In this document: piece by piece, positions 3,773 through 63,906 of the stretch
Layout: every line of letters starts with the position of its first letter
Numbering within the stretch: position 1 is the stretch's first letter
The notes under the pieces: generated by a model
Databases searched by the model: none
The model's input: the letters and a program-made list of their open reading frames with translations, nothing else
What the model was told of the DNA's origin: nothing
Assembly: GCA_965198235.1 (NCBI GenBank)
Contig: OZ240248.1
Coordinates: 1,312,001-1,376,000, forward strand
Reading direction: 5' to 3'
DNA length: 64,000 nt
Source: Candidatus Poribacteria bacterium
GTDB lineage: Bacteria; Poribacteria; WGA-4E; WGA-3G
Position numbers and translations under genes: made by a program

Positions 3773-3774
3773 AG

Positions 3775-9514: not shown

Positions 9515-9528
9515 CTGTGCATGGAATC

Positions 9529-9642: not shown

Positions 9643-9696
9643 AATTTCCTCAATTTTCCCCTCCTACAGCAGAGGTGCCGAGGTAAGGATAACGAC

Positions 9697-13019: not shown

Positions 13020-13020
13020 A

Positions 13021-13866: not shown

Positions 13867-13870
13867 CCAA

Positions 13871-17850: not shown

Positions 17851-20026
<2,176 letters not shown>

Positions 20027-24206: not shown

Positions 24207-24224
24207 CTATTGTTTCCTCCATCT

Positions 24225-28197: not shown

Positions 28198-28314
28198 GAT
28201 TGCTCCTTGTATGTTTACACAAAGTGGCGCGCAAATGCTTACACCTACTGATAGCATCCTCCAAAAATGGCGTTGATGCTCGTATCAGGCTTTTCTTTCC
28301 TCTGGTTCTCCATA

Positions 28315-40970: not shown

Positions 40971-41756
40971 ATGAAATTGACGATCATCGTAACTGTCTTG
41001 CTCTGTTGCCTGTTCCCGATAGCAACGCCGGCAGAATTGCCCCTTGATGCGCTTGCGATCTATATGTCTTTTGATGACATTCAAGGCAACAAAGTGATAG
41101 ATGGCTCAGAAAACGGAAACGATGGCACGATTATGAAGGCATCCCTTGCGAAAGACAAGGGAAAATACGGCAACGCAATGGAATTCGAAGGCGGAGATAA
41201 CCATGTGCTGATTAAGAGCTCCAAATCGCTCTCGATTGCCGATGAGGTCACAATTTCCGCTTGGGTCAACTGGAACGATGCCCCTGGCAACGGTTGGTTG
41301 ACCGTGATAGCGAACGGAATGCAAGGTGGACCCTGGGAAAACTACGGACTCTTTGTCAACCGTGGGAGTCGCTACTTCTACTTTACGCTCTCTGTCGGTG
41401 GCGAAGGTCAACATAAAGTGATGAATTCTGGGGGCGGTACGACTGAACCTGGAGAGTGGATGCACTGTGTCTGCACCTATGACGGCAAAGATGCCAAAAT
41501 CTATATTGATGGCGATCTGAAAAATGCCGCACCTCATGGAGGCAAATTGGTCGCCGGAGAGCAGGATTTGAGGCTCGGCCACCGAGGGGGCAGCGGCCAC
41601 TGGTATAACGGTTTGCTTGACGAGATCGCAGTATTTTCGGTCGCTTTAGATGAGGATCAGGTTAAAGAAGCGAGTAGCAATATCGAGGAGGCACTTGATG
41701 TTCAGGCGCGTGGAAAACTCGCAACTACTTGGGGTAAAATGAAGGCGGACCCATAG
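40971..41756 (+). CDS. LamG-like jellyroll (concanavalin A-like) secreted protein
   Basis: YMSFDD, GKYG.A.EF, TISAWV, W.H...TYDG...KIY.DG, G.LDEIA; C-terminal GKLATTWGKMK. Confidence 0.88.
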   Translation: MKLTIIVTVLLCCLFPIATPAELPLDALAIYMSFDDIQGNKVIDGSENGNDGTIMKASLAKDKGKYGNAMEFEGGDNHVLIKSSKSLSIADEVTISAWVNWNDAPGNGWLTVIANGMQGGPWENYGLFVNRGSRYFYFTLSVGGEGQHKVMNSGGGTTEPGEWMHCVCTYDGKDAKIYIDGDLKNAAPHGGKLVAGEQDLRLGHRGGSGHWYNGLLDEIAVFSVALDEDQVKEASSNIEEALDVQARGKLATTWGKMKADP

Positions 41757-41804
41757 GCTAACATCTCAGATGTGCCTTGTCTTTCTTCTATGGAGGCGCA
41801 ACCG

Positions 41805-42581
41805 ATGAAATTACCTATAAGCGCAATTGTCTTGCTCTGTTGCCTGTTACCCACAGCAACACGAGCAGAGTTGCCGATTGATGAACTCGCTCTTTACATG
41901 TCCTTTGATGACATCCAAGGTAACAAAGTTATGGATGGTTCGGAGCATGGGAATCACGGAACAATTATGAAAGCATCCGTCGCGAAAGACAAAGGTAAAT
42001 ACGGCAACGCGATGGAATTCAAAGGCGGGGACAATCACGTCCTGATGAAGAACTCTAAGTCTCTTTCAATATCGGATGAGGTCACAATTTCCGCTTGGGT
42101 GAACTGGAACGATGCGCCTGGAAACGGTTGGTTAACCGTGATGGCAAACGGAACACAAGGTGGACCCTGGGAAAACTACGGTCTCTTTGTCAACCGTGGC
42201 GGTCGCTACTTCTTTTTTACGCTCTCTATAGGTGACGTTGCGGTGATGAATTCTGGCAACGGCTCGACCGAACCTGGAAAATGGACGCACTGTGTCTGTA
42301 CCTATGACGGCAAAGATGCCAAAATCTATGTGGATGGTGATCTGGCAAACACGGCACCTCATGGAGGCAAATTGGTTGCCAGAGATCAGGATTTGAGGCT
42401 CGGCCATCGGTCCGGAAGTGGCCACTGGTACAACGGTTTGCTCGATGAGATTGCAGTGTTTTTGGTCGCTTTAGATGAAGATCAGGTTAAAGAAGCAAGT
42501 AGCAACATTGAGGAGGCACTTGATGTTCAGGCGCGTGGAAAACTCGCAACCGTCTGGGGCAAAGTAAAGGCGGGACAGTAG
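41805..42581 (+). CDS. LamG-like jellyroll secreted protein (tandem paralog)
   Basis: Highly similar to 40971-41756; C-terminal GKLATVWGKVK. Confidence 0.88.
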   Translation: MKLPISAIVLLCCLLPTATRAELPIDELALYMSFDDIQGNKVMDGSEHGNHGTIMKASVAKDKGKYGNAMEFKGGDNHVLMKNSKSLSISDEVTISAWVNWNDAPGNGWLTVMANGTQGGPWENYGLFVNRGGRYFFFTLSIGDVAVMNSGNGSTEPGKWTHCVCTYDGKDAKIYVDGDLANTAPHGGKLVARDQDLRLGHRSGSGHWYNGLLDEIAVFLVALDEDQVKEASSNIEEALDVQARGKLATVWGKVKAGQ

Positions 42582-42614: not shown

Positions 42615-43526
42615 ATGACCATAGTAAGAACAGTTTCTAACCCAAAAAAAGGGCGGGATGGATTCCAACAGAGACCTTCGATACGGTTTCTGCTCCATTT
42701 CGCCCTTGTTTTTATCTACCTTGCCTGCTCCGAAGAGGAAGCATCCGAGCCACCCGAAGGCATGGTGCTGATTCCCGCAGGTGCCTTTCAAATGGGAAGC
42801 ACGACAGGGGATGTCGATGAGGTGCCCGTGCACACGGTGGAACTTGATGCGTTTTACATGGATCCGCATGAAATAACCAACGCTGAATATCAGGCGTTCG
42901 TCGCCGCAACGGATCACCCTACCCCACGAGGGATCGGCTATACCGCCGTCTACGAACTTCTCAAACACGATTACGAACCGTGGGACGACCCCGGTTTCAA
43001 TCACCCAAATCAACCCGTCACAACCGTGACATGGTTTGATGCGACTGCCTACTGCGAATGGGCAGGCAAACGGTTACCAACGGAGGCGGAATGGGAGAAA
43101 GCCGCACGCGGTGGCTTGGAAGGCGCACGCTATCCATGGGGTGACACTGAACCGAATAACACAAGTGCCAACTTTGCTGACAGCCAAACGGAATTTGAAT
43201 GGCGGAGTTCCGATGTAAACGACGGATTCCTTTTTACCGCCCCTGTTGGAACGTTTCCGCCCAACGGTTACGGTTTGTATGATATGGCGGGGAATGTCTG
43301 GGAATGGTGTTCAGATTGGTACAGTCCAACCTACTACAGCGACGTGCAAGGTGCGGAGAGTCCACCCCAGAATCCGAAGGGACCCGACACCGGTGAACGC
43401 CGCGTTTTACGTGGCGGAACATGGTACCGTGCTGTGCACACAATTCGCAATGCCGAACGTATCAGCGATTACCCGGACAGTAGCCTGAACGTTGTCGGTT
43501 TTCGATGCGCCATGGATGCCCCGTAA
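42615..43526 (+). CDS. SUMF1/FGE-sulfatase domain protein (lacks FGE catalytic Cys pair)
   Basis: MVLIPAG.FQMG, EITN..Y..F, RLPTEAEWEKAARGG, PN.YGLYDMAGNVWEW, RGG.W, GFRCA. Confidence 0.88.
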   Translation: MTIVRTVSNPKKGRDGFQQRPSIRFLLHFALVFIYLACSEEEASEPPEGMVLIPAGAFQMGSTTGDVDEVPVHTVELDAFYMDPHEITNAEYQAFVAATDHPTPRGIGYTAVYELLKHDYEPWDDPGFNHPNQPVTTVTWFDATAYCEWAGKRLPTEAEWEKAARGGLEGARYPWGDTEPNNTSANFADSQTEFEWRSSDVNDGFLFTAPVGTFPPNGYGLYDMAGNVWEWCSDWYSPTYYSDVQGAESPPQNPKGPDTGERRVLRGGTWYRAVHTIRNAERISDYPDSSLNVVGFRCAMDAP

Positions 43527-43584: not shown

Positions 43585-44600
43585 TGTCAGAACTGTGATT
43601 TTTGTGATTCAGTGATTTACAGGATGGGAGATGCCTATCGAGTGAAAATTGTCCTTTGTAGAATTACCGAAATATAGTAAAGCCCGAAAATATGTAGACA
43701 GTCGTTCAGCAAACAAACCCACCACCGCTGGCGAGGGTGTTTTTGATAGGGGTGTTTTTGCTTGGGTATTTCTGCGGATTTCAACAAGGTTTTTCATGCA
43801 CTTTCCCACCCCATAGGGGTGATATGTCTATAGAAAACGGTGTATTAAAGCGACTGCACCCCGTAGGGGTGCTATGTCTATAAATAGGTGGCAACTTGCG
43901 TTATAATAACGTGAGCTTGATAAAAAGTCTTGTAGGTGTTTTTGCTTGGGGTTTTTGATAAGGTGTTTCTGCGGATTTCCCCCAGGTTGAACGGGAATCA
44001 AGTAAAACGTGGATAGAAAAGACACCGATCAAGTTCAGTAGGAAACCTGAAGCCACTAAAGAACGAGTGAAACCCAACACTTTTTACTTCCAACACGATG
44101 CGTCTGTTGGGTTTCGCTATATCTCTCTCTATCAACGATTCGCAGAAAGGCGTAATTTCCTGTATAAACGCAAGGGGCTTTACCGCTCAACCCAACCTAC
44201 GGAAACCATATTCAGATTTTTAATTATCAAACTCACATTATAATATGTAAAATCATAGCAAATTTCGACGCATCTGTCAAATTGTACCGCAAACTTTCGT
44301 TTGCGCCCTGAAACCGTCAATGTCCCTAACCCCGTCTCTTCCTAACAAAAACCGTCGATAAACAGAAACCCCAAAAATCCGCGTAATCCGCACAATCCGC
44401 GCCAATCCGCGATTTGCGGCGTACTCGCCCAAATGCGACGTGCATTCAGACAATTCCCCAATCATAAAAATCACTAAATCACAATAATCACAGTTCAGAC
44501 TTCTTCCACTGCCCACTGCTCGCTGACTGCTCTTTGTAGGAGCGACCTCCCGGTCGCGATTCCCCTGTTCGTAGTAGTGCGATTTATCGCACGTTCTCCA
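43585..44600. repeat. Nested repeat/MITE cluster
   Basis: 9-bp periodic AATCAC repeats, G/T mosaic repeats, CACCCCGTAGGGGTG palindromes, MITE ~43906-44241 with TIR ATAACGTGAGCTTGATAA, GTAG-type REPs. Confidence 0.75.
44536..44595 (+). repeat. GTAG-type REP doublet (copies at 46959-47017 and 51248-51307)
   Basis: GTAGGAGCGACCTCCYGGTCGCGAT + GTAGTAGTGCGATTYATCGCACG. Confidence 0.8.
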
Positions 44601-44605
44601 ATTAC

Positions 44606-46930
44606 TTATCGCAATGTTTTCAACTGTCCCCATGTGGATATCTCCTTACCAGCAGCACCGACATGCCCTTTCAGGCGGATGCCACGGGTCAAGGTCTGAT
44701 GATTCCCGTCAAGAGAGACCTCCTCTATCTGGTAGTAGTAGACGACGTTGGGTTGAGCAGTTGTATCCGTGTAGGTATAGAACTGCTTCTCGCTGGTCGT
44801 GCCTGCGCCAGGGACCATGGTTGCGTTGATGACCTTGAACTGTCCGTCTCGTTGCTGACTCCGCTTGATAAAGAATCCAGCGTTGTTCAACTCCGATTGC
44901 GTAGACCAAGTAATCACCACTGCGCCAGTCGCCTTATCACGGGCAGGACGGAAGTGCGAAAGCTCGACGGGCAACGCACCACCAGCACGGAATCCGGGTG
45001 TGCCGACATCAATCGGTAAGCCGTAGTAACTGCGTGCGCTCAGATGCATCTGTTGTGCGAAACTCGTATCAGAGGCGAGCACCCAAGAATCCATCAGCGT
45101 GCCGTCTTTCGGTTCCGCGGGACCCACAGAAACGGGAACGTGTCTACGGATAATCGAGCTACGTGCACCATCTTCGTCTATCGGTAGTGCCCACATCGCA
45201 GTGCCATCCTCAGAAACCAGGTTGCCAACCACATCCATTGCCGCGGCGCGAGCGGCTGCCTGTCCAATAAATACAGCCGTAACCGGCGGTGCAAGCGTTA
45301 TTTTGAACGCCGTCCCGCTCATCAACGAATAACGGCGTTTGGAAATACCCAACAGAATCAGTTCATACAGTTGATCCGTCCAGAGATTGACGACCTGACC
45401 GTCTGCCAGCCAGCCGTCAAGGTTATTACGTCCCTGTGCGGTGACAACGAGAACGGTTGACGGGGTATCGTGCTGTCCACTCGGATCAATCTTTGTGCCT
45501 TCCGGGATCGTGAATACCGCCTTCGCACCGATACTCACATCGACATCAGCAGCGTCGTTCTCGACTGTCAGCGTCCAACCACCCAGGTTCACCTGCTCTG
45601 TCCGGGAACCGTTGGAAATCTCAATCCACTGTGGCAATCTGCCACCCCCAGCGAACATAATCTCGCTGATGTAGATTTGACCTTCCTCCGGTATCATCAC
45701 GGAAGCATCTGCGGCTGTCGCATCGGCATCAGCAGTCGCCTTTTCCGCAGCTGCGGAGTCTATGCCGGAGCCAGCCTTATCTTTGACAGGAATGTCGTGT
45801 CCAGCTGTGCTGTTCGCATCAGTGATCTTTACATCATCGTCGTGTGGCAGGGATAGCGTAACCCCTGTTCCGGGTGGCATCGTGGTTGTCGCTACCGCAA
45901 GTCTGAGTTGCTCACGCCCGTTCGGCTTGTTCGCTACACCGAACGGCTTATACACATTCACGAATGGGGAAGCACCATCATGGAACTCCTTGAGACTGAT
46001 CTTCACCGTATCCACTCTGCGATGCGGCGTAATCGTCACACGGTACTGATGATACATATTATCCGTGCCAGTGGGCATAGGAACGTTCATAGCATCCGCA
46101 CCTGGTGCCACACCGGCCAAACCATCATCGGCCTCTCCACTGTGCACGTACATTCCCTCAGACGGATGCGGCAGAATCGTCGAATCCGCATCTCCCTGTG
46201 CATTCGCTCGTCGTGCGAAGGGGACACCTACGACCAAGTTGCTGGCTGTTCCACCTTCAACGTTAATCTTATCAAGTGTCAGACCGCCGTCAGGTTTCTC
46301 GGTGAGCACAATCCGCACGTCAAAGGCACCCGTAACTTTCTCCTCTTGGAAAGCACTGACGACCGCTTGGCTACTCGGGCGCAACCGCTGGATGGAAACC
46401 ACGTTCGGGCGATCAGTATTTACCGGTATGGGACCCATTAAATTAAACGACAGGGAACCCTCTTTACTCGTCTGCTCTTCATTAGGAGTAAGACGTTTGA
46501 CACCCGCTTTTATGTACAGATGAACTTTTCTGTCATCTGCATCAGTGCTGGCGGCAGCAATAGTAAACGCGAAGGTTTTCCTATCCGTTTGAACTCCACC
46601 AACGGCAGCATTGATGTCCTTTATGCTAATTTCTGATGTCGATCCAGCACCCGCTTGCCCGGTGCCATCAGTTGTTGCTGGAACAGCAAGAGCAGTTCGA
46701 ACACCGTTCTTATCTTCAACGTGAACAATGATAAACGCCCTCTCAGCAGTTGTAAGTGCTACTTCCTCAGCAAATGTAAGCGTAACGACGATATCTGTGC
46801 CGTATTGCTTGTTAATAACGCTAAATGTGGCATCGAAGTCATCAGCCGCCATCGCGGAAGGCACCACGAAAGCAAGAACAAATATTGTGATTAAACGCAT
46901 TAACGAAAATGCCATTTTCTTTGACAACAT
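44606..46930 (-). CDS. Lamin-tail-domain secreted surface protein, paralog A (internally deleted relative to B)
   Basis: MLSKKMAFSL signal; IYISEIMF...QWIEI.N...V.L.GWTL; GTPG; LPVELSHF; C-terminal WGQLK. Confidence 0.8.
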   Translation of the reverse strand: MLSKKMAFSLMRLITIFVLAFVVPSAMAADDFDATFSVINKQYGTDIVVTLTFAEEVALTTAERAFIIVHVEDKNGVRTALAVPATTDGTGQAGAGSTSEISIKDINAAVGGVQTDRKTFAFTIAAASTDADDRKVHLYIKAGVKRLTPNEEQTSKEGSLSFNLMGPIPVNTDRPNVVSIQRLRPSSQAVVSAFQEEKVTGAFDVRIVLTEKPDGGLTLDKINVEGGTASNLVVGVPFARRANAQGDADSTILPHPSEGMYVHSGEADDGLAGVAPGADAMNVPMPTGTDNMYHQYRVTITPHRRVDTVKISLKEFHDGASPFVNVYKPFGVANKPNGREQLRLAVATTTMPPGTGVTLSLPHDDDVKITDANSTAGHDIPVKDKAGSGIDSAAAEKATADADATAADASVMIPEEGQIYISEIMFAGGGRLPQWIEISNGSRTEQVNLGGWTLTVENDAADVDVSIGAKAVFTIPEGTKIDPSGQHDTPSTVLVVTAQGRNNLDGWLADGQVVNLWTDQLYELILLGISKRRYSLMSGTAFKITLAPPVTAVFIGQAAARAAAMDVVGNLVSEDGTAMWALPIDEDGARSSIIRRHVPVSVGPAEPKDGTLMDSWVLASDTSFAQQMHLSARSYYGLPIDVGTPGFRAGGALPVELSHFRPARDKATGAVVITWSTQSELNNAGFFIKRSQQRDGQFKVINATMVPGAGTTSEKQFYTYTDTTAQPNVVYYYQIEEVSLDGNHQTLTRGIRLKGHVGAAGKEISTWGQLKTLR

Positions 46931-47070
46931 TCGTTTAATCCCCCCGTGACCCTCTTCTGTAGGAGCGACCTCCTGGTCGCGATCTTCTGTTCGTAGTAGT
47001 GCGATTCATCGCACGTTCCCAAATCACAGTTCAGACAATTACTGACAACCGATAACTAACAACTACTAAA

Positions 47071-47114
47071 AAACAAAACGGGGTAATGTCGCTAAGGACA
47101 CTACCCCGTCTTGT
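47071..47114 (-). terminator. Intrinsic terminator of paralog B
   Basis: GACGGGGTAGTGTC-loop-GACATTACCCCGTTTTGTTTTT; compensatory changes versus 55815-55858. Confidence 0.75.
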
Positions 47115-47171
47115 GGTTAAGGTTAGTTCAAACAAATTTTATCCCTGAAATAACCTTGTTGTTCCTACTAC

Positions 47172-50100
47172 TTATTGCGATGTCTTCAATTCTCCCCACG
47201 TCAGCGTGGCTTTACCGGCGACACTCACATGCCCTTTCAGGCGCATGCCGCGGGTCAGCGTCTGACGATTACCATCGAGAGATACATCTTCAATCTGGTA
47301 GTAGTATACGACGTTGGGTTGAGCAGTTGTATCCGTGTAGGTATAGAACTGCTTTTCACTCGTTGTGCCTGCACCAGCGATCATTGCCGCGTTGATGACT
47401 TTGAACTCGCCGTCTTTTTGCTGACTCCGCTTGATGAAGAATCCAGCGTTGTTCAGCTCAGATTGCGTAGACCAGGTAATCACCACTGCGCCAGTCGCCT
47501 TATCACGGGCAGGACGGAAATGTGAAAGTTCAACAGGCAACGCACCACCAGGACGGAATCCGGGTGTGCCGACATCGCTTTGTGCGCCGTAGTAACTCGC
47601 GGCACGGATGTGCGTCGGTTGCGCGAAACTCGTATCGGATGCGAGTGCCCAATTCATCATCATCGTGCCATCTTCGGGTTCCGCAGCACCGACAGAGACT
47701 TGGACGTGTCCACGAATAATCGAGCTACGTCCGTCCTCACTCATCGGCAATGCCCATGCGGCAGCACCATCAGCACCGAGGTTACCCACGATATCCGTCG
47801 CTTCTGCGCGTTCCTTCGCGGCTTTGGCATCAGCGGCGGCCTTGGCGGCTGCAGCTGCGCGCGCGGCTGCGATTTCGGCTGCCGTTGTTGGCGCGGCTGC
47901 TTTCTTCGCTGGAGCTTCAATCGGCACCGGGGGGGCGAGCGTTATTTTGAACGCCATACCGCTCAACAACGAATAGCGAGGTTTCAGAACACCTGCTATG
48001 ATCAGGTCAATCTCGGTCGTAGACCCTGGTTGATTCAGGACCATAACCTGACTCCTTGCCTTCGCGCCCGTAAGGTTGTTACGTCCTCTTTCGGTCACGA
48101 GGAGCAGCGTTGACGGGGTATCGTCCTGTCCACTCATATCGATCTTCGTGCCTTTCGGGATCTCGAAAGTTACTGAACCGACACTCACATCGGTATCGGC
48201 TGCAGCGTTATCGACCGTCAGCGTCCAACCGCTCAGGTCGACCTCTTCTGACCGCGAACCGTTGGAGATCTCAATCCACTGTGGGAGCGTCCCACCGCCA
48301 GCGAACATAATTTCGCTGATGTAGATTTTACCGACCATCGGCATCGAGACAGAAGTATCTGCTGCTTTTGCGGCTGTTGCGGCTGCGGCAGCAGCTTTCG
48401 CTTTTGCTGCTGCTACTATAGCTGCGGCTTCAGAAGGACTAATGACACGTGTGGAACCCGGTGAAGCATCGTATTTACCTTCAAGACCTAACTTGAAGTT
48501 GACGCTTGGCGATGTCGACTGCATCCAACTACCTGCTACCGTACCGTTTGCGGGCATCATCGCGCCTGCTGCTGCACCTACTGTTGTATCTGCCACCATC
48601 CCACGATACATAGAAGCAAGCTGCTGTATCGGTGCGATTGCAGCGACATCTGCGGTACCTGCGTCAACCCCAGATCTTCCACTCTGACCTTTACCGGCGA
48701 TTGACCAGTAAATATCCGCTGTGGTCCCTGTTGTTGCGGGTGCGATAACGGTTCCAGCAAATGTTTTCGTACCGACCCGGTCAACGAGCACACCCGCTGT
48801 GCCATCATCCTTCACGTATGTCGCACGAGGGGTCTCGTTCGCTTGATAGAACCACAACGCCCATTTATTTTCACCAATCTCAATAGCGGCTGTGGTCGCA
48901 TTGGCAATCTCAATCCATTGGCTGTTTGTGGCATCAGCGGTTTGGCTGGCATCGGTGCCCCACATCACTTCACTGATATAGGCGGCTCCCGCTGCTGTGC
49001 CATCGTATGCCACGAGGTCAATCGTGCCATTATTGGCGAGGAACGTCTCTAAGTTCGGCAGACTCCCCGATGCCCTGACATTGTATAACAATTGGGCAGG
49101 CGTCTGCTTATGGGGGACATTCTCTACTTTCGTCTTATCCGCCGCATCTACCTCGTCCGAGAAATCTATGCCGGAACCAGCCTTATCCTTCGTAAGGATG
49201 TAGTGCCCAGCCGTGTCCGCGTAAGTGATCATTGCAGCTTCGCCGTGCGGCAGGTAAAACATAAACCCTGCACCGAGTGCAGCAAGGTCTGTCGCTACGG
49301 CGAGTCTGAGTTGCTCACGCCCGTTCGGCTTGTTCGCTACATTAAAAGGCTTATACACATTCGGAAACGGTACAGCATTATCATGGAATTCCTTGATACT
49401 GATTTTCACCATATCCACTCTGCGATGTGGCGTAATCGTCACACGATACTGATGATACATACTATCAGGACCCGTAGTCAGCGGGACAAATGTGTGATCG
49501 GTAAGACTTGGTGAACTCACCTCACCTAGCGCACCAACTAAAGCGTCGTCACCATCGTGAGCATACATACCCTCAATTGGATGGGGTCTATACGTGCTTG
49601 CCAACTGATCAGCGGTAGGCTCATCAGCGAGCGTATCTCCGAGCCGCGAGAAGGGCACACCTACGACCAAGTTGCTGGCTGTTCCACCGTCAACCTCAAT
49701 GTGAGCAAGTTTAAATTCATGCGGCAACTCGGTGAACACGATCTTAACGTCAAAGGCACCCGTAACTTTTTCCTCTTGGAAAGCAGAGACGACTGTTTGG
49801 CTACCCGGACGCAACCGTTGGATAGAAACCACGTTCGGACGATCAGTATTTACCGGTATGGGACCGATCAAATCAATACTCGCTGAAGCCTTTTTGCTCG
49901 TCTTCGCTTCCTCAGGGACAAAACGGGCAACACCTGCTGGTATGAACAGATGAATTTTTCTGTCATCCATATCAGTGCTTTCGGCATCAATAGTAAACAC
50001 GAACTGTTTTCTATCCGTTTGATCGCCGGTAACAGCAAGGTTGATGTCCTTCGCGCTAATTTCTGATGTTGATGTAGCACTAGCATCTGGCGGGTTGTCA

Positions 50101-50381
50101 CCAACTGCTGTAATTGTTGTGGGGACAGTGATAGCAGTTCGAACACCGTTCTTATCTTCAATATGAACGGTAATTATCCTTGTCTCTGCCTCCTGTATAT
50201 TTGCAAGCGGTACTTCCTCTTTAAAAGTAATCGTAACCTCGATATCTGTGGCATAGGTTGTATTAACAACGCTAAATTCGGCATCGAAGTCGTCAGCCGC
50301 TATCGCAGAAGGCACCACGAAAGCAAGAGCGAGAATTGTTATTAGACTCATTAACGAAAATGCCATTTTCTTTGACAACAT
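47172..50381 (-). CDS. Lamin-tail-domain secreted surface protein, paralog B
   Basis: Signal peptide; two ISE.M..QWIE domains; Ala/Lys-rich linkers; LPVELSHF; C-terminal WGELK. Confidence 0.85.
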   Translation of the reverse strand: MLSKKMAFSLMSLITILALAFVVPSAIAADDFDAEFSVVNTTYATDIEVTITFKEEVPLANIQEAETRIITVHIEDKNGVRTAITVPTTITAVGDNPPDASATSTSEISAKDINLAVTGDQTDRKQFVFTIDAESTDMDDRKIHLFIPAGVARFVPEEAKTSKKASASIDLIGPIPVNTDRPNVVSIQRLRPGSQTVVSAFQEEKVTGAFDVKIVFTELPHEFKLAHIEVDGGTASNLVVGVPFSRLGDTLADEPTADQLASTYRPHPIEGMYAHDGDDALVGALGEVSSPSLTDHTFVPLTTGPDSMYHQYRVTITPHRRVDMVKISIKEFHDNAVPFPNVYKPFNVANKPNGREQLRLAVATDLAALGAGFMFYLPHGEAAMITYADTAGHYILTKDKAGSGIDFSDEVDAADKTKVENVPHKQTPAQLLYNVRASGSLPNLETFLANNGTIDLVAYDGTAAGAAYISEVMWGTDASQTADATNSQWIEIANATTAAIEIGENKWALWFYQANETPRATYVKDDGTAGVLVDRVGTKTFAGTVIAPATTGTTADIYWSIAGKGQSGRSGVDAGTADVAAIAPIQQLASMYRGMVADTTVGAAAGAMMPANGTVAGSWMQSTSPSVNFKLGLEGKYDASPGSTRVISPSEAAAIVAAAKAKAAAAAATAAKAADTSVSMPMVGKIYISEIMFAGGGTLPQWIEISNGSRSEEVDLSGWTLTVDNAAADTDVSVGSVTFEIPKGTKIDMSGQDDTPSTLLLVTERGRNNLTGAKARSQVMVLNQPGSTTEIDLIIAGVLKPRYSLLSGMAFKITLAPPVPIEAPAKKAAAPTTAAEIAAARAAAAAKAAADAKAAKERAEATDIVGNLGADGAAAWALPMSEDGRSSIIRGHVQVSVGAAEPEDGTMMMNWALASDTSFAQPTHIRAASYYGAQSDVGTPGFRPGGALPVELSHFRPARDKATGAVVITWSTQSELNNAGFFIKRSQQKDGEFKVINAAMIAGAGTTSEKQFYTYTDTTAQPNVVYYYQIEDVSLDGNRQTLTRGMRLKGHVSVAGKATLTWGELKTSQ

Positions 50382-50556
50382 TCGTTCAATCTCCTTGTTC
50401 TTATGGAATAAAATTTTAAACTTAAACCTAAAACCTCACGGAAGGGAAAAAATGGAAAAGTAATCTTTTTCATGTCTTGCCTCCGCTTATGTACAAAATA
50501 AGAACGGATCCAGGGATTGTAAACCCATTCCTCATTTGAACCTAACCTTTTGCACA
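50300..50556 (-). repeat. Long inverted repeat, left copy (leader plus signal-peptide coding); partner 52346-52600
   Basis: Near-identical reverse complement of 52346-52600. Confidence 0.92.
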
Positions 50557-50695
50557 TAATGTAACTTACACATTATGTGCTGTTTTCAAGGGTTGCTAAT
50601 CGATGCGGCTCTAAGAGTGACTCTTAATGTGTGAAAACATCGCGTTTCAACTCATAATGTGCCAAAATATCGCGTTTCAACCCTTTACACAGTTA

Positions 50696-50724
50696 ATTCT
50701 ACCCTATTAAACGCTATTTGTCAA
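50696..50724 (-). promoter_or_regulatory. Strong sigma70 promoter for paralog B
   Basis: TTGACA-17bp-TAGAAT with upstream A/T tracts (50730-50810). Confidence 0.75.
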
Positions 50725-50824
50725 ATTAAAATTACAAAAAAACGCACTTTTTTGCGAAAAAACGCATAATTCGTCAAAAAAAGTGCGAAATTCGCAAAAA
50801 AAGTGTAAAATGGAGTATTGGTTG

Positions 50825-51310
50825 TCGTCAGAACTGTGATTTTTCTGATTTACTGAGTGGAAGAAGTCAGAACTGTGATTTCTGTGATTTCTGGGATGTG
50901 CCGTGATTGGGAAATTTTCAGAACTGTGATTTGTGGGATTTCTGGGATGTGCCGTGATGTAGAAAACGGTGTATCTAAGCAACCCCACCCCGTAGGGGTG
51001 CTATGTCTATAGAAAACGGTGTATCCAACCAAACGCACCCCGTAGGGGTGCTATGTCTATAAATAAGTGGCAACCTGCGTTACATTAATATATATTAAAG
51101 GAACCGAAGGTGGGGTATTATCTACAGCAGTTTCGTAGCGGAAACCCTCATCACAGAAATCACATCATCAGAAAAATCACAGTTCAGACAGCGGTTTTGC
51201 GGATAAGGCGGGTTAGAGGGGGGAGGTGCTGATAACGCCTGTCTTCTGTAGGAGCGACCTCCTGGTCGCGATCCACCTGTTTGTAGTAGTGCGATTCATC
51301 GCACGTTCTT
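50825..51310. repeat. Repeat cluster (AATCAC periodic repeats, CACCCCGTAGGGGTG palindromes, REP doublet)
   Basis: 41-bp duplication 50868-50908/50918-50958; 50-bp duplication 50985-51060. Confidence 0.7.
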
Positions 51311-51371
51311 ATGCACCCCTGTCCCCCTGATAAGGGGGATTGAGAGGGTTGGGGGGTTACTGACCCCTACT

Positions 51372-51493
51372 AACAAAAGCAGATAACGGGAGAGTTCCCT
51401 ATACTCCCCCGCTACCCTTTTAGTTTAATCAAATGGAGGAGATTAGTGTCGTCCTCAGGACAGGTTAAGTTTAGCCTCATTCCAGGAGGTTAA
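51372..51493 (-). ncRNA. Candidate small RNA with anti-Shine-Dalgarno tract
   Basis: Own promoter TTGACA-17-GATAAT (51499-51527), two hairpins, UAAUCUCCUCC tract, GC-rich terminator plus U-run (51375-51421). Confidence 0.5.
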
Positions 51494-51766
51494 CCTTAAT
51501 TATCCAATTTCTACGGAAAAATGTCAAGGGGCAAGTCTTGTGCCTTCAGGGCTATTTAGTTTTAGGTGCTTTATCCAATTGAGCCGAAAAGTCGCGAGCG
51601 GGAGCTCGTTTCCCCAGGTCTTGTGCCTGCGCACCCAAGAACCATTGTAGGGGGTTTTTGCTTGGGGATTTCCCCAGGTCTTGTGCCTGCCCGTTCCCTT
51701 GTGCCTGCCCTATATACAGTATATATAAGGAGCACACCATATATACCTACATATAAGGAGCATACC

Positions 51767-52183
51767 ATGTCAAACGAAATCTATCTCTCCGTCGCCCAAG
51801 CCGCCGATCTACTGGGCATCTCGCAAGAAACCCTCTACAAAGAAATTCAATCTGGGAACCTTACCGCGACAGAGAACCCGGACCAAAAACGGAAGCATAA
51901 AGTCATCGCCGTCAGCGAACTCTCGCGCCTCTACGGTAAGATATGCATCCCTGACGGGTATCTCGAATACTCCGGGGATAAGTCAGTTGATTTTGTGAGG
52001 GTTGCGCTCCGACAAGAGAATGAGAGGCTCCGTAAGGCGTTGGAAGAGACCCAGAATCGCGAGCGGAATCTCAATGAGCAGCTCAAGACCGCACTTCAAA
52101 ACCACAAAACGCTTATCGAGACCCACGCAGATCTCACCAAAACCATCGATAATTTAACCACTGTGCTGGATAAAATGACCTAA
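51767..52183 (+). CDS. Excisionase/MerR-like helix-turn-helix protein with C-terminal coiled coil
   Basis: LSVAQAADLLGISQETLYKEIQSGNL; LRQENERLR coiled coil; AAGGAG RBS. Confidence 0.8.
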   Translation: MSNEIYLSVAQAADLLGISQETLYKEIQSGNLTATENPDQKRKHKVIAVSELSRLYGKICIPDGYLEYSGDKSVDFVRVALRQENERLRKALEETQNRERNLNEQLKTALQNHKTLIETHADLTKTIDNLTTVLDKMT

Positions 52184-52345
52184 ATTCTTTCTTGTTTGTA
52201 AAACACCTGCTATTTTACAGAGAATCCCTCCGGAATTACAATTTTTTGAAATACCTCCCGGCCCTCCCTCGTCTCGGTAGGCGCGGTTTGTAACTGGAAG
52301 CCTCACACTTCCGATTCTCGCCGCTCCTGGCCGAATTTAACCTTT

Positions 52346-52600
52346 TGTGCAAAAGGTTAGGTTCAAATGAGGAATGGGTTACAATCCCTGGATCCGTTCT
52401 TATTTGTACATAGACGGAGGCAAGACATGAAAAAGATTACTTTTCCATTTTTTCCCTTCCGTGAGGTTTTAGGTTTAAGTTTAAAATTTTATTCCATAAG
52501 AACAAGGAGATTAAACGAATGTTGTCAAAGAAAATGGCATTTTCGTTAACAAGTCTAATAACAATTTTTGCGCTTGCCTTCGTGGTGCCTTCCGCAATGG
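52346..52600 (+). repeat. Long inverted repeat, right copy
   Basis: Reverse complement of 50300-50556. Confidence 0.92.
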
Positions 52601-55600
52601 CAGTGGATTTTGAGGTCACGATTGAGGGGCAGCGAGTGGTGACTTATCCAACAGGTCAAGAAGCCACAGCGCTTGATCCTATTCTACTGACAGTTACGTC
52701 CGAAGAGGCTCTTCCTGACCCTCTTATGGTAGGGGAGGATACCGATGAAAATGGTCTTACTGATCACGCAAATGATATCCTCGGAAACATAACTGTCACC
52801 ACTCGTGATGAAAGGGGTTTCGAAAAAGTTTTCATTACTGTTGAATCAGGTGATGATGCTCATAGTAGTATTGCTACAGGTGTTACAGTAGTAGACGACC
52901 CTGTAGATACTTTTGCTGATAGATCAGTGAAACTGCGTCAGTTACGTGTTACCATCACACCGGGTGCAGCTCCCACAACCCTCGAGCGGGTCACGATAAC
53001 AATACCTGCCTTTGAGACGCCTGATGTTCGTGTCGATGATCTTCACGATTGGAGCCTCGGGGCGTCACACACGATCCTCGTTAGAGATGTAGCGGATGTT
53101 GAGCTTGATGAGGATGACGCACAAGTGGTATCAATCCAGCGGTTGCGTCCGGGGAGCCAAACGGCAGTTGCGGCCTTCCAAGATCAGGAAATTAGTCCCG
53201 ATCCTTTTGATATTCGGGTCGTGCTCACCGAGTCGCGTTTTAACCGGATAGATTATATTGAGAAGACCCCGGATGAGCTTGCGGAGGAACTCATTGAGGT
53301 TGACGGCGGGGAAGTCAGTGACTTGAGAAGAGGTGTCCCTTTTGAAATTCGCAGAGTAACTGCTGCTACAGAATCTACGACTTTCAAACCGCATCCGAAT
53401 GAGGGGAGGTACGAGAATACTGGTATAGATGATGCACTCCCAGGACTGGAACCTATGGAGACTGTCCCGGAGCCCACGGGTCTTGATAATATGTATCATG
53501 AGTACCGTGTGACGGTTACGCCCCAGAGACGGCAAGGTCCTTACACCTTGACGCTCAGCGTGAAGGGATTCGGGAGTTATGCCCCGTTTCTCATAGGTGA
53601 AAAACCCAACGGTCGTGAGCAACTCAGGGTTCCCGTAAGGATGGATCCGAGAGACCGCACGGCTGGCATTCGGATAATTGTGGGGCACGATATCGTCGTT
53701 CCTAAAAATGGCTACTTGATCATCGCGACGGACTGGTGGCAGTCTCAAATCGTAATACCGCGGGGTAGGATAGACAAATCACCGAGGGCGATTGACCGGC
53801 AACCCGCTCAAATGATTTACAACCTTATCGACCACGGCGGTCTCCCGAACCTCGCAACCCAATTCTACAACGGTGTTGTGATTGATGTAGAGAGTTCAAA
53901 CGACTTGGTTATCTCTGAGGTGATGTGGGGTGAAGATGCAAGTTTGACTGAACCTGCACGCAGCCAATGGATCGAGTTGTATAACCCTGGTGATGAATTT
54001 AAGACGCCAGAGGATGATGCGGCTACGTATGACATTGATGAACGCCTCACGCTCGTTATCTATAGAGCGAACGAGTTCAGTGATATTCCGGCAAAGGTGG
54101 CAGTAGCGGCAACGGCGACTGCGCCCGCTACTATGGCATTGCCAGATAGAGTTACCGATCGGATCGGAACGCTCGATGCGACTGGGAAATACTGGTCACC
54201 CGCAACCAAAGGTCAAAGCGGTCGGAGCGGTCTTCCTATCGAGAGATTTGGAGAACTCGTAGACGTCGAAGTCATACCGACTATTGGGACAGGAGATGTT
54301 ACGCCCATCGTTTCGATGTATCGGGTGATGGAACCAGATACCTCAACAGATGCGGCAATCGGTGCGATGAAACCTGTCGACGGTCAAATGGCCGCGAGTT
54401 GGATGTCCTCTCAGCAGCCAAGGTCTGCGAACTTTCGTCCGCATGCGATTGGTCTCCGACACGGCACACCGGGTGCGACAACGGATGCTACCGATACACC
54501 GGCAGATACCGAAGCTGAAGCAAAAGCTAAAGCGGATAAGGAAAAAGCCGATGCGGATAAGATCGCCGGCACTGGGACGATTCCGAAAGCGGGTCAAATC
54601 TACATCAGCGAAGTTATGTTCGCTGGCGGTGGCACACTGCCGCAGTGGATTGAGATCGCCAACGGTTCTCGGGCAGAAGAAGTCAACCTGAGCGGTTGGA
54701 CGATTACGGTGGATAACGCCGCTGCGGATGCCGATGTGAGTATCGGTGCTTCAGCGACGTTCACGATCCCCAAAGGCACGACGATCGATATGAGTGGTCA
54801 GGACGATACACCCTCAACGATACTCGTTGTCACTGAAAAGGGACGTAACAGCTTTAGTGGTCCGAAAGCAGCGAGTCAGGTCATTGTCCTGGATGAACCG
54901 GGCTCAATGACTGAAATCGACCTGATTCTGGCAGGTGTTACGAAGGGCAAATACACATTGCTCAGCGGCATGGCGTTCCAGATAACGCTCGCACCGCCGG
55001 AACCAGAGGTGGATGAAACGGCAGCTGAGAAGACAGCGCGGTTAACCGCTGAGAAGGCTGAAACGGTAGCTGCGAAGACAACACGGCAAGCCGCTGAAGC
55101 GAGAGCCGCAGCGGAACGTAAAAGGGCAACGGATACGGTCGGTAACCTCGGTGCTGACGGTGCTGCTGCATGGGTATTGCCGATGAGCGAGGAAGGCGGT
55201 CGTAGTTCGATTATCCGCAGACACGTTCAGGTCGCTCGAGGTCCCTCAGCACCCGAAGACGGCACGATGATGGACAATTGGGTGCTTGCATCCGATACGA
55301 GTTTCGCACAAGTCACGCATATTCGTGCGCAGAGCTTCTACGGTGCGGCGAACGATGTCGGCACCCCCGGATTCCGTCCTGGTGGTGCATTGCCTGTAGA
55401 ACTTTCACACTTCCGTCCTGCGCGTGATAAGGCGACTGGCGCAGTGATGATTACATGGTCGACCCAATCAGAGTTGAACAACGCTGGATTCTTTATCAAG
55501 CGGAGTAATCAACCTGACAGCGAGTTCAAAATCATCAACGCGGCAATGATTCCTGGCGCAGGCACAATCAGTGAGAAGCAGTTCTATACATTTACGGATA

Positions 55601-55761
55601 CAACTGCGCAACCCAACGTCGTATACTACTACCAGATTGAAGATGTATCTCTTGACGGAAACCGTCAACAATTGACCCGTGGCATCCGCCTGAAAGGGCA
55701 TGTGAGTGTCGCTGGGAAAGCCACGCTGACGTGGGGAGAATTGAAGACGTCTCATGAGTAG
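52519..55761 (+). CDS. Lamin-tail-domain secreted surface protein, paralog C
   Basis: Same signal peptide and C-terminal third as B; divergent N-terminal and central regions. Confidence 0.85.
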   Translation: MLSKKMAFSLTSLITIFALAFVVPSAMAVDFEVTIEGQRVVTYPTGQEATALDPILLTVTSEEALPDPLMVGEDTDENGLTDHANDILGNITVTTRDERGFEKVFITVESGDDAHSSIATGVTVVDDPVDTFADRSVKLRQLRVTITPGAAPTTLERVTITIPAFETPDVRVDDLHDWSLGASHTILVRDVADVELDEDDAQVVSIQRLRPGSQTAVAAFQDQEISPDPFDIRVVLTESRFNRIDYIEKTPDELAEELIEVDGGEVSDLRRGVPFEIRRVTAATESTTFKPHPNEGRYENTGIDDALPGLEPMETVPEPTGLDNMYHEYRVTVTPQRRQGPYTLTLSVKGFGSYAPFLIGEKPNGREQLRVPVRMDPRDRTAGIRIIVGHDIVVPKNGYLIIATDWWQSQIVIPRGRIDKSPRAIDRQPAQMIYNLIDHGGLPNLATQFYNGVVIDVESSNDLVISEVMWGEDASLTEPARSQWIELYNPGDEFKTPEDDAATYDIDERLTLVIYRANEFSDIPAKVAVAATATAPATMALPDRVTDRIGTLDATGKYWSPATKGQSGRSGLPIERFGELVDVEVIPTIGTGDVTPIVSMYRVMEPDTSTDAAIGAMKPVDGQMAASWMSSQQPRSANFRPHAIGLRHGTPGATTDATDTPADTEAEAKAKADKEKADADKIAGTGTIPKAGQIYISEVMFAGGGTLPQWIEIANGSRAEEVNLSGWTITVDNAAADADVSIGASATFTIPKGTTIDMSGQDDTPSTILVVTEKGRNSFSGPKAASQVIVLDEPGSMTEIDLILAGVTKGKYTLLSGMAFQITLAPPEPEVDETAAEKTARLTAEKAETVAAKTTRQAAEARAAAERKRATDTVGNLGADGAAAWVLPMSEEGGRSSIIRRHVQVARGPSAPEDGTMMDNWVLASDTSFAQVTHIRAQSFYGAANDVGTPGFRPGGALPVELSHFRPARDKATGAVMITWSTQSELNNAGFFIKRSNQPDSEFKIINAAMIPGAGTISEKQFYTFTDTTAQPNVVYYYQIEDVSLDGNRQQLTRGIRLKGHVSVAGKATLTWGELKTSHE

Positions 55762-55814
55762 TAGCAACAACAAGGTTATTTCAGGGATAAAATTTGTTTG
55801 AACTAACCTTAACC

Positions 55815-55858
55815 ACAAGACAGGGTAGTGTGCTACGGTGCATTGCCCTGTTTTGTTT
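55815..55858 (+). terminator. Intrinsic terminator of paralog C
   Basis: GACAGGGTAGTG-loop-CATTGCCCTGTTTTGTTT. Confidence 0.75.
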
Positions 55859-56383
55859 ACAGACAACTCTATAAAAACGTTCATTGTTCGCGAAATATCG
55901 TAGTGCAACCTTTGTGAACACTAAAAAAAATTAATTCGGTGATGTGGGGTGTAAATCGTCTGAAGTCGGATTCATTGTGATTTAGAGATATACCCAATCA
56001 CAAAAATCACTGAATCATAAGAATCATAGTTCTGACAATTGCCCACAACCGCCCCTATTTCAAAATCACCAATAGCACACTATAGATTAAATCGGCAATT
56101 TGGCGCGGTTAGGACACCTCAACATAACGGGCTACATCCGCTCCGTTCGGACAGGAAATGCTGAGCTCCCACCCCACAGCAGGGGACTGTAGAACAAGAT
56201 CAAGGTAAACGCATCTTTTTTCAATATAAAGGCTGTCGGCAGTCAGGGCGTTCGCTGACGCTCACTTTCAGCAATCGGAAACCTTCAGTTAGCGTTCTGA
56301 TGGAAACCGATGGAAACCGACATCCAAAATTCTGACGGCTGACGGCTGATAGCCGACGGCTATAAATTGAGGTATATTTTTTC

Positions 56384-59300
56384 ATGAACACTTTAACCAC
56401 ACGACAAATTGTCCTTGGACTGCTGATGACGCTCGTGCTGGCGTTCAGCGTGCCGGGTATTGTAGACGCACAGAGCGTGTCGGTCAGCGGTGATGGGTCT
56501 ACTACGAGTACAAGTAGTGGAACTACAGTTATAACGGATTACCGAACTACGCCCGCCGTGGAGCGCTCTTTCACTATTACAGTAAGTAAAGCGGAAAATG
56601 GTGAAGTTATTACTATCAGAGGTAGTTCTGATGTTACTATCAACGAGATAAAGAAAGAAGATAAGTTAACTAACGAGACGGGAAGTGTTACTGGCGAGGG
56701 ATCAGGGGTGGTTACCATTACTGTTAATGCACCTAATGTTGGTGCTGACCGAGATCTCAATGGTGATAATGATAAAAACGATATAGTCACCTCTTTCTTG
56801 GAGAGTAATTTAGATGAGGATCTCAATAATGATGGTGACAAAGTTGATACATTCGGCTCAATCTCGGAGAGTGATTTAAATGCGGATCTCAATGGTGATG
56901 GTGACCAAACTGATACACTCAGTTCGGTAAAGGAATATCTAGAAGACCCAAACTGGGAGTCGGGATCTGTCACGATCACGGTGGATTACACTGTCACTGA
57001 ATTCGGGAGATATACGGTGACGGTGACAGCTAATGAAATTGATACCGATATATCGGGTTCTCCGATCACGGCTTACGTTGTCCGAAGCGACACCCTTGCG
57101 AGGGGTACCAGCATTGCTACGGGGTCAACCACAACTCCTGTGTTAAGAACAAGTAGTGTTAGTTTCACGATAGCTCCAGCTACTCAGTGGACCCGAGTGG
57201 ATTTGAAGGTCACCGGTGGGAAACTCTATTTGGACAGTGGTCGGTATTTGAGTAGTAACAAACTCTTTGACGTTACGCAAAGGAAAGAGTTCACCAGCCT
57301 TTCCATGTTTACAGGCGCGGGTGGTTCTCTCACCGTGAACCTTATACAAGATAGCGGGAAGGTTGCTAAAATTACTGCGACAATTCCGGGTTCCAACGCA
57401 CGAGGAAAAACGTATACCGTTACCTCTTTCGCCAGTGCCATTACAGTAGAGCAGGTATCCGGCAATCATCAGTTCGGATACACGAACCAAGGGGCAAACT
57501 ACGGCTCTTGGGAAAAGCTGCAAAATGCGCTTGTTGTTCGCGTAGTAGATGGACACCAAACTAACAACAACGTTGAGGGACAATGGGTTACGTTTACTAC
57601 GACTGGCACATCACGTTTGCGAGCTACCTCCCGCGCCAACCTCTGGCCTGGTGCCGATGGTACTATAACTGCTGCAGATGATAACCAGAGCCCCTTAACA
57701 GTGAAGACGGATGGCAGCGGCAGGGCGCAGGTTTACTTGCTACCAGGGACTACCCCTGCTACTTATACAGTAACCTACGCCGTGGTGTCTCAAGAGTCTC
57801 CTACGGCGTTGGGGACGGCTCTTACCGGAGCTGCTGCAAGTAGTCAGAGTCGAGGTGCCATTAATGAACAGTTCACGGCGACTGCAATTCTGGATCCTGG
57901 TGATACTCGCGAGCATGTAATTAATAGAAGTGAGTCTACGCCAACACCTGAAATACGTCGTGCCCAAGGCGACACAGAGATGATAGTCGATGTTGAAAAC
58001 AGTGGTGGAACTGATGCGCAGAATGTTCAAGTCGATTTTTCAGTCTCCGGTGGACGGCTCACGCTGACGCCGGGCTCGAACTATCAGACCTCGCTCTCCA
58101 CGGTCACCGATAGTGGGGGCGATGCCAGGGTTTGGGTCCAAGCAACTGGTAATTCTGTTGCCATAGTTACGGCTCGGATCGCTGGGAACAATGAAGATGC
58201 TGGAAGATATGTTGTTACCTTTCTCCGCACTGGTGCTTACATCGAGTATGTGTCGGGTGATGACCAGGACGGTGCTATCGGTGGAAGACTGGAAAATCCC
58301 CTTGTCGTTAAAGTGTTAGATGGCAGAGGCGGTAGTGCTATGCCGAACCAGATCGTTAGGTTTAATGTGACTGCCGATGATACCAATGACCATAATAGTA
58401 ACCGACGACAGTTTATTCCGGTCCCTGACACATACGTGTTTGTGACAGCAGCTAATACGGATATATTCGACGAGATTGGGGCTGACATGCCAGACGCTAC
58501 GAGTGTCCCACGTTTAGCTAACGCACTCCGACCCATTCGTGGGAGTAATGGCACTGGCCAGAACATCTTTATCCAAACCGATTCCAATGGCGAGGCTAAA
58601 GTTTACCTCCGATTAGGGAGTGCGGATGATACGGGTACCTCCGACACAGTGGAAACGGTGGATGCCGCGAGATTTAATGCCTTCAAAGTCCACCGGGTCA
58701 CGGCTACAACGCCAGATGGGGCTCCCAATGTGGGGGTCCGTTTTAGAGCCGATGCCGTGGATGATGCAAGACAAGCGAAGTTAGAGATTGTCTCAGGGGA
58801 TAGGCAGAGTGCCGAAAAAGGCGATCCTCTTGCGGATCCCTTGGTTGTTCGGGTGCGAACTGTGCGGGGATTTCTGATCCAAGGCATACTCCTGGAGTTC
58901 ACTGCCCTCGATGGTACCCTTCTCACGGATCCTGACCACGATACCGTCCTTGTTTCTGAGAGCGGAGGTGGTAACCAAATACGGGTCAGAACAGGTCCTG
59001 ACGGTGAAGCCCGGGTTGACTACAATGTGGGTCAACTGAGAATTGCGAGGGATGTCACAGTAGAGGTTGTAGAGGAACAAGGTACCCTTCAATACGACTT
59101 CGCGATTGATGAGGTAAGATTTGGTGTCAACGGTGGGCAAGGCACTGGCACAGGTGGAGGCACACGTCAACCGCCACCGCCACGAACGCCAACGAATACG
59201 ATCACGATTACGCTGTCGAGTAGGACGGGCGAGCCGGGTGACGAGATAGATGTTGAGGTTGATTCATCTCCGAGGGGTGTATTGGTCACTATAGACAGTG

Positions 59301-63725: not shown

Positions 63726-63906
63726 AACCGATTCCTAATAATCCTGCAAATCTCTAAATCTTGTAAATCCTCCTTCAGACAGTTACCAATCACAAAAATC
63801 CCTAAATCACAGAAATCACAGTTCAGACAATTATCACCCAAAGGGTATATAATCCTGAAAATCCTGATTCTGACAATTACCCTTTCTCTTTATGCTAATT
63901 TTCTGC

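Follow-up and report, generated by a model that had tools for sequence, protein, structure and literature searches.

Does the DNA between two divergently transcribed genes for secreted proteins invert in Poribacteria, and would such an inversion exchange promoters between variants of a surface protein? The question is raised by a locus in a window of 64,000 nt (the whole stretch of DNA analysed here), which lies on a 5,121,291-bp contig of a Candidatus Poribacteria genome (contig OZ240248.1, positions 1,312,001 to 1,376,000). The locus contains three paralogous genes for proteins with lamin-tail domains (LTD genes A, B and C), of which B and C point away from each other and flank a segment of 1.8 kb. 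According to an original prediction, this segment carries a single promoter, aimed at B, and its inversion through the shared 5′ ends of the two genes switches expression between B and C. We find that this segment is a control cassette, conserved in Poribacteria, and not a bare promoter, that the repeats on its two sides are homogenised within genomes, and that the gene body standing behind one of its promoters differs between genomes. We put at roughly one half the probability that a flip of this cassette, by general recombination, exchanges promoters between two LTD surface variants, and give the same probability to a switching function of the locus. The genes and the arms of the inverted repeat are the following.

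44606-46930, minus strand: LTD paralog A, 774 aa, in tandem with B and downstream of it.
47172-50381, minus strand: LTD paralog B, 1069 aa, with a Sec-type signal peptide (assigned by eye); it contains a Big_12-like region and two LTD regions, and its C-terminal domain is conserved.
52519-55761, plus strand: LTD paralog C, 1080 aa, with an N-terminal domain unlike those of A and B and a conserved C-terminal half.
50299-50562, minus strand: left arm, made up of the first 83 nt of the B coding sequence (signal peptide) and 181 nt of 5′ leader.
52340-52601, plus strand: right arm, made up of 179 nt of leader and the first 83 nt of C.

The three paralogs lie where they had been placed, as open reading frames (ORFs) whose products all score above the Pfam cut-off of 34.3 bits for LTD (PF00932; A 39.7, B 51.1 and C 57.8 bits). 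The near-identical inverted block of leader and signal peptide that was proposed for B and C is also there, and spans 262 nt, with arms that are 94-97% identical and differ at about 15 positions. It is recovered as three adjoining pieces (50299-50497/52403-52601, 199 nt, 94%; 50496-50525/52376-52405, 30 nt, 97%; 50522-50562/52340-52380, 41 nt, 95%). When the arms are aligned end to end they contain a perfect run of 98 nt, and the differences fall mostly in the signal-peptide codons. The outer end of the repeat coincides with the signal-peptide cleavage site and its start lies about 180 nt 5′ of each ATG, with the inner end just upstream of a conserved hairpin block, present in both arms and given here for the left one.

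About 50500-50532, minus strand: conserved hairpin and U tract in the left arm.

This block, a 12-pair stem followed by a U-rich run, stands before every first LTD gene of a locus (8 of 8 sequences) and is absent before tandem downstream paralogs. Its role could be that of an attenuator or of a binding site for a protein.

The comparison between genomes is based on one scan of species-representative genomes (one genome per species), from which five related loci were taken (L001-L005; the window genome is called W). All five belong to Candidatus Poribacteria metagenome-assembled genomes (MAGs), which fits the suggestion that the window comes from a probable sponge symbiont. W, L003 and L004, three independent assemblies, share the same architecture, and L001, L002 and L005 show part of it. 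The LTD genes of these loci are labelled L003_X and L003_Y, L004_X and L004_Y, L001_g1 to L001_g3, L002_g and L005_g1, and gene A is W_A.

The arms of L004 are 322 nt long, 99% identical and separated by 4694 nt, while those of L003 consist of 160 nt at 84% and 71 nt at 97%. In W, L003 and L004 the inner boundary of the repeat falls at a homologous position, just upstream of one conserved block, and the side-specific flanks can be aligned between W and L003, so that the inverted duplication is old and ancestral to these loci. The distal part of the leader (-180 to -56) is nevertheless 95% identical between the two arms of W, 100% in L004 and 73% in L003, as against at most 65% between genomes (values taken from a rough global alignment). 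The proximal block (-55 to +84) behaves differently, with 80-93% identity among most of the 13 gene starts and lower values for W_A (66-76%) and for a few pairs with L001_g2, L001_g3 and L005_g1 (76-79%). These four tandem paralogs lack the distal leader. Because old repeats are alike within genomes and different between them, the pattern indicates concerted evolution, with ongoing recombination between the arms in W and L004. A perfect run of 98 nt is ample for RecA-type recombination.

The segment enclosed by the arms holds, from left to right, an outward promoter (P1), a candidate small RNA gene on the same strand, a divergent gene for an HTH_17 protein and a second outward promoter (P2).

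50724-50696, minus strand: promoter P1, TTGACA-17-TAGAAT, 11/12 consensus positions, with A/T-rich upstream tracts, aimed at B.
50620-50679, minus strand: two 30-nt direct repeats, at the site of the 70-74-aa small ORF of L001-L004.
51372-51527, minus strand: candidate small RNA gene, made up of promoter P3, some 120 conserved nt and, at 51417-51381, a terminator hairpin.
51527-51499, minus strand: promoter P3, TTGACA-17-GATAAT, 11/12 consensus positions.
51767-52183, plus strand: HTH_17 gene, 138 aa, an excisionase-type helix-turn-helix (HTH) protein with a coiled-coil-like C-terminal half, transcribed towards C.
52214-52242, plus strand: promoter-like P2, TTTACA-17-TACAAT, 10/12 consensus positions, located after the HTH_17 stop codon and before the right arm, aimed at C.

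A scan of positions 44000-57000 gives 24 promoter-like sites, against 13.0 ± 3.8 in shuffled sequences, so a lone match is weak and conservation across genomes is what counts. P1, the consensus promoter of the original prediction, is conserved in this sense. It aligns without gaps in all five genomes, with TTGACA as the -35 hexamer in four of them and TTGAAA in one, and TAGAAT, TATAAT or TAAAAT at -10. The accompanying claim that nothing comparable precedes C does not hold, since P2 faces C and recurs in L004 with identical hexamers and spacing, downstream of the HTH gene of that locus. The search pattern for P2 finds no match in L001 and none in L003, where TTTACA can be seen by eye with a shorter spacer. 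Of the two outward promoters, P1 is probably strong and P2 the weaker.

Between P1 and the leader, all four of the other genomes L001-L004 carry a small ORF of 70-74 aa (L001 5841-6065; L002 9538-9750; L003 5324-5548, plus strand; L004 5289-5068, minus strand), and one of the two copies scanned matches HTH_23 (E = 1e-4). In W about 190 nt are missing at this place and the ORF is deleted. The small-RNA candidate is found in each case immediately upstream of P1 and on its strand (L001 5385-5561 and L003 4903-5081, plus strand; L004 5456-5633, minus strand). Three sequences were compared, and 4 of 37 predicted pairs show compensatory changes, in the terminator hairpin. A covariance model built from these three also gives a weak hit at the corresponding position of L004 (27.3 bits, E = 2e-4), where the promoter and the first hairpin are preserved. 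The candidate includes a conserved ATCTCCTCC stretch that is complementary, by eye, to a Shine-Dalgarno-like sequence. Rfam contains no family that matches the whole window at gathering thresholds, or positions 50200-52700 at E values up to 1, so that the leader and the small-RNA candidate both fall outside the known RNA families. The HTH_17 protein scores 31.5 bits against Pfam HTH_17 (PF12728, cut-off 27) and 27.8 bits against TIGR01764 (cut-off 28.8). It is 80-82% identical in L001, L003 and L004, and 219 relatives were found, with 77-89% identity among the 120 matches listed. No recombinase partner was found for this excisionase-type protein. Whether or not it inverts, the cassette is a new conserved regulatory unit: P1 is found in all five loci, the small-RNA candidate and the HTH_17 gene in three of the five, and a weak small-RNA match in L004.

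Changes in the linkage between cassette and gene bodies can be followed through the LTD genes themselves and through a neighbour outside the repeat.

56384-61591, plus strand: gene D, 1735 aa, encoding a large secreted protein with Big_1, dockerin and FlgD_ig domains and a type IX secretion system (T9SS) type A sorting domain.

In the tree of the N-terminal and middle protein parts, L002_g, which lies directly behind P1, is sister to L004_Y, which lies on the HTH side with P1 facing away (support 100/99). The same tree joins L003_X, on the HTH side, to L001_g1 and L001_g3, of which g1 is behind P1 (support 93/96). The tree of C-terminal DNA (last 1080 nt) groups L003_Y, which is on the P1 side, with L004_Y, which is on the HTH side (support 89/95). 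The comparison across related MAGs that had been suggested as a check thus finds the architecture again in L003 and L004 and, when these two loci are oriented by their Y genes, the cassettes in opposite orientation. Gene D, which follows an LTD gene in each of W, L002 and L005, gives a second frame of reference: P1 points towards the D-linked LTD gene in the L002 locus, and in W it points in the opposite direction. The gene body behind P1 therefore differs between genomes in two independent ortholog pairs, from which it follows that linkage was exchanged during evolution and that the exchange ran through the leader. Rearrangements beyond simple flips have clearly happened as well; the related loci carry IS630-type, TnpB-type and Tn5-type transposase genes, and in L001 the block with gene D is inverted relative to the cassette.

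A single process could account for both the likeness of the arms and the altered linkage. General (RecA-type) homologous recombination between the arms would keep them near-identical and, whenever an event is resolved as a crossover, would invert the cassette, so that either gene body could become joined to the strong P1 or to the HTH/P2 side. No recombinase family is found among the 39 window ORFs scanned against Pfam (a scan that mostly leaves out ORFs shorter than 150 aa), and the repeats are far longer than recombinase sites, so any flip would proceed by general homologous recombination. The predicted effect of inversion on B and C is upheld in one respect, that gene-promoter linkage has been exchanged between genomes; it does not survive as an on/off switch, since P1 and P2 would trade places between B and C. 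A nested inversion through the 5′ homology of A and C (46841-46943/52506-52608, 103 nt, 86%, longest perfect run 41 nt) might, speculatively, also place A behind a cassette promoter. Inversion within a population, its rate and the relative strength of P1 and P2 are inferred.

Several points weigh against such a promoter exchange, and many of them favour a static divergent pair with a shared regulatory leader, in which B is expressed from P1 and C from P2 or the HTH promoter, both at the same time. Here the arms would be kept alike by conversion without crossover together with selection on the leader, and the differences in linkage would be rare accidents with no switching. We regard this as possible but doubtful. 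P2 and the HTH_17 gene face C, P2 with hexamers and spacing shared by W and L004, so both LTD genes may be active whichever way the cassette lies, and inverting it may change little. The hairpin and U tract of all eight first-gene leaders, which show compensatory changes in none of the 12 pairs, might just as well be a regulatory element, conserved and kept alike by selection. The lack of a recombinase in the ORFs scanned fits an immobile segment too, and the rate of flipping would be that of general recombination, which may be low. Among the close relatives of C (P0005-P0010), six of six still have a signal peptide of the C type, with no exchange visible 3′ of codon 11; a B-type signal peptide on these proteins, sought as a trace of exchange, occurs in none of them. 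These peptides neither support nor exclude crossovers in the 5′ untranslated part.

The linkage evidence has weak places as well. The position of L003_Y is unsettled in the N-terminal tree, where the orthology of L003_X/Y and L004_X/Y was tried, and approximately unbiased (AU) tests do not reject L003_Y+L004_X (p = 0.27) or L003_Y+L004_Y+L002_g (p = 0.16). L002 has neither an HTH_17 gene nor a second LTD gene and carries an IS630-type transposase fragment upstream, and its linkage may stem from other rearrangements; insertion sequence (IS) elements are abundant in these loci and could rearrange them. The differences in orientation that were seen lie between species. The distal leader speaks against a static pair. 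It is so poorly conserved between genomes (at most 65%, against 95-100% within W and L004) that selection on sequence alone fails to explain the identity of the arms. Two or three independent re-linkages among five genomes are also many for pure accident, and since conversion and crossover between inverted repeats share intermediates, some inversion is to be expected.

A transcriptional toggle that needs no change in the DNA is improbable as the explanation of this locus. Two small HTH proteins, each co-transcribed with one LTD gene, would repress each other's promoter (the HTH_17 protein on one side, the product of the 70-74-aa ORF behind P1 on the other) and make expression exclusive, with post-transcriptional control by the small RNA. 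Consistent with this, L003 and L004 have two divergent regulator genes, each 5′ of one LTD gene, with the conserved small-RNA candidate between them; the small ORF is kept in all four of the other genomes, and the HTH_17 protein is well conserved among the 120 relatives listed. As the small ORF is deleted in W, a toggle of two repressors would be unworkable as such in this genome, and it leaves the homogenisation of the arms unexplained. Operator sites for the two proteins were not identified either. Toggle and inversion could coexist.

Misassembly of the inverted duplication, which the original prediction had named as a possible refutation, or of the segment's orientation is very unlikely: repeats of 260-320 nt are hard for short-read assemblers, and about 38 of the 120 HTH_17 relatives listed are on contigs shorter than 3 kb, but the window contig measures 5.12 Mb, the same architecture was recovered independently in L003 and L004 and partly in L001, L002 and L005, all from independent projects, and the roughly 15 differences between the arms mark them as two real copies.

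The anatomy of the locus and its lability in evolution are well supported. Promoter exchange by a cassette flip remains the reading we favour, and it can tentatively be widened. A phylum-wide LTD switch of Poribacteria, in which the flip by general recombination and a transcriptional toggle together set the dominant surface variant, would draw on all parts of the locus, that is, two outward promoters of different strength, two small HTH regulators, a small RNA and repeats of 260-320 nt. We consider this wider version possible, and hold it with reserve.

The proteins that would be exchanged form a family with a recognisable division. B is 71% and C 54% identical to A; all three have a nearly invariant signal peptide and share a conserved C-terminal half. 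A lacks about 295 residues that carry the first LTD region, and its 5′ homology to B and C is limited to the signal peptide and about 13 nt before it, with no distal leader. In the C-terminal tree its ortholog is L001_g2 (support 96/89). B and A are separated by a strong terminator-like hairpin.

47073-47114, minus strand: terminator-like hairpin between B and A, an 18-pair stem followed by a T run.

Across genomes the last 142 aa of the LTD proteins are 80-90% identical, and BLAST scores for the N-terminal and middle parts are low or nil in most comparisons between genomes. The family therefore looks like a variable surface family, with a conserved anchoring or export module and a variable exposed part, and its members are probably exposed at the surface. 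Among the candidates scored, 409 relatives of C were found, the six closest at 89-93% identity. The C-terminal module can be assigned to no family or fold by Pfam, NCBIfam or the ESM Atlas. Searches of Pfam and NCBIfam with pieces of B and C return only LTD and a sub-threshold Big_12, and for residues 940-1069 of B the best ESM Atlas score is 0.82, all matches being labelled 'hypothetical' and giving no lead. A structure model of the conserved C-terminal 142 aa, from an alignment of 11 rows, was unusably poor (mean predicted local distance difference test score, pLDDT, 48.7) and was discarded. D matches the T9SS type A sorting domain (TIGR04183, 24.5 bits, cut-off 23); A, B and C match neither TIGR04183 nor PF18962, and BLASTP finds no similarity between the C-termini of B and D (E = 0.25).

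One further candidate element within the arms was set aside.

50473-50351, minus strand, and 52427-52549, plus strand: 40-codon upstream ORF with a GGAGG ribosome-binding site, identical in both arms.

This ORF runs across the start codon of the LTD gene in another frame. The aligned leaders of L001-L005 lack it, and in some database relatives (e.g. P0019, P0031, P0037 and P0038) its peptide is in frame with the LTD protein. We do not treat it as a functional element. Judging by the translated N-termini, the two arrangements would differ by one base in an A/T run, which could reflect true variation, faulty gene calling or a sequencing error in a homopolymer.

Short repeats are scattered through the intergenic DNA near the LTD genes (43586-43600, 44486-44560, 46959-47036, 50827-50931, 51175-51272, 56022-56036 and 63814-63828). 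The sequence AATCACAGTTCWGAC has 10 matches against 0.3 expected, nine of them within 43.5-64 kb, and a 25-nt palindrome-bearing unit has three copies around the LTD genes. Within the five related loci AATCACAGTTCWGAC occurs once, in L001, and the 19-nt core of the GTAGGAGCGACC... repeat is absent from the other loci. Because they are nearly absent there, these repeats are lineage-specific; they resemble repetitive extragenic palindromic (REP) sequences or miniature inverted-repeat transposable elements (MITEs) and do not belong to the conserved parts of the cassette. In the cassette of W, positions 50960-51059 consist of two tandem 50-nt units that are 92% identical, each with a palindrome CACCCCGTAGGGGTG.

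Mobile and plasmid-type genes are found at several of the related loci. IS630-type and TnpB-type genes are inserted in the L004 cassette (5755-6951, plus strand, and 7854-9008, minus strand), yet the arms there are 99% identical. L001 has a TnpB-type gene next to its HTH gene, a gene for a Tn5-type transposase between g2 and g3, and a tyrosine recombinase gene directly downstream of g3, the only one seen (3529-4740, 12594-13994 and 18481-19365 for these three). On the 18.8-kb contig of L005, positions 5797-7477, directly upstream of the LTD genes, hold a Rep_3 replication initiator gene followed by six overlapping-register matches of a tandem array with an iteron-like 22-nt unit. The HTH_17 protein of W has a sub-threshold match to the plasmid replication DNA-binding family NF038291 (40.9 bits, cut-off 85). 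The cassette, or the locus, may be plasmid-related in origin.

Elsewhere in the window, positions 9517-11567 (plus strand) encode a two-gene candidate anti-phage system, an AAA_21/AAA_15 ATPase and a DUF4276 protein, with PADLOC matches to HEC-01A (E = 1e-160) and HEC-01B (E = 3e-73). A Type II DNA methyltransferase gene (N6_N4_Mtase; 28376-29167, minus strand) adjoins an unassigned 304-aa ORF (27343-28257), with which it may form a restriction-modification pair. The window also contains two sulfatases, a formylglycine-generating enzyme (FGE), two Laminin_G_3 proteins and a PSCyt2/PSD1/DUF1501 gene set.

11616-13019, 29300-30748, 42615-43526, 40971-42581 and 22761-26915: sulfatase/FGE/Laminin_G_3/PSCyt2 set.

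A gene content of this kind is typical of Poribacteria and fits a lifestyle of sponge-matrix degradation.

Sponge symbionts such as Poribacteria cannot be grown in culture, and their persistence in the presence of phages and of phagocytic host cells calls for an explanation. If the cassette does flip, a recombination-prone element would redistribute promoters among hypervariable secreted proteins and produce heterogeneity of the surface at the population level, a trait so far known mainly in pathogens and gut commensals. The wider, phylum-wide switch would be the first case of phase or antigenic variation to be described in an uncultivated sponge symbiont, with escape from phages or sponge phagocytes as a plausible use. 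Full-text literature searches returned no paper on such a switch in Poribacteria or sponge symbionts.

Among known systems, the site-specific invertons can be set apart. Salmonella Hin/hix, Escherichia coli fimS with FimB/FimE and the Mpi-type invertons of Bacteroides are inverted at short repeats (about 9-30 bp) by a recombinase of the serine or tyrosine type, whose gene is usually close by. Our locus resembles them in having a promoter on a segment that is bounded by inverted repeats and lies beside genes for surface structures. It differs in the length of its repeats (262 nt in W, 322 nt in L004 and 160 + 71 nt in L003) and in the absence of a recombinase from the ORFs scanned, and it is not a site-specific inverton.

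The multigene families of variable surface proteins in Mycoplasma (vsa, vsp and vpma) are switched by Xer-like recombinases; their members share a conserved 5′ end that includes the signal peptide, and expression sites are exchanged through this conserved end. According to an account of Mycoplasma variable lipoprotein loci (PMC5634654), the site-specific recombinase acts at a short site in the 5′ region. The LTD genes likewise look like a variable surface family with a conserved 5′ end and signal peptide, but neither such a recombinase nor such a site has been identified here.

In the sap S-layer locus of Campylobacter fetus, a promoter is inverted through the conserved 5′ regions of the sap homologues, nested inversions included. 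The system is touched on in PMC1950947. Both loci consist of paralogous genes for secreted or surface proteins with a conserved 5′ end and variable bodies, and in both (here in W, L003 and L004) opposed genes flank a promoter-bearing segment. In both the homology is long, in 5′ untranslated and 5′ coding sequence, with no short recombinase site and no dedicated invertase adjoining, and nested inversion could in principle reach the extra tandem copy here, A. The LTD proteins, with their LTD/Ig-like regions and Sec signal peptide, are unrelated to SapA, the shared 5′ block is only about 260-320 nt long, and inversion, which is known for sap, is a prediction here. The analogy drawn by the original prediction is thus apt for the anatomy (conserved 5′ block, opposed genes and promoter segment) and fails for the single promoter, because the Poribacteria segment has, in place of the one promoter of sap, two that point outward, together with a regulator gene and a candidate small RNA. 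With that difference, sap is the closest known system in design.

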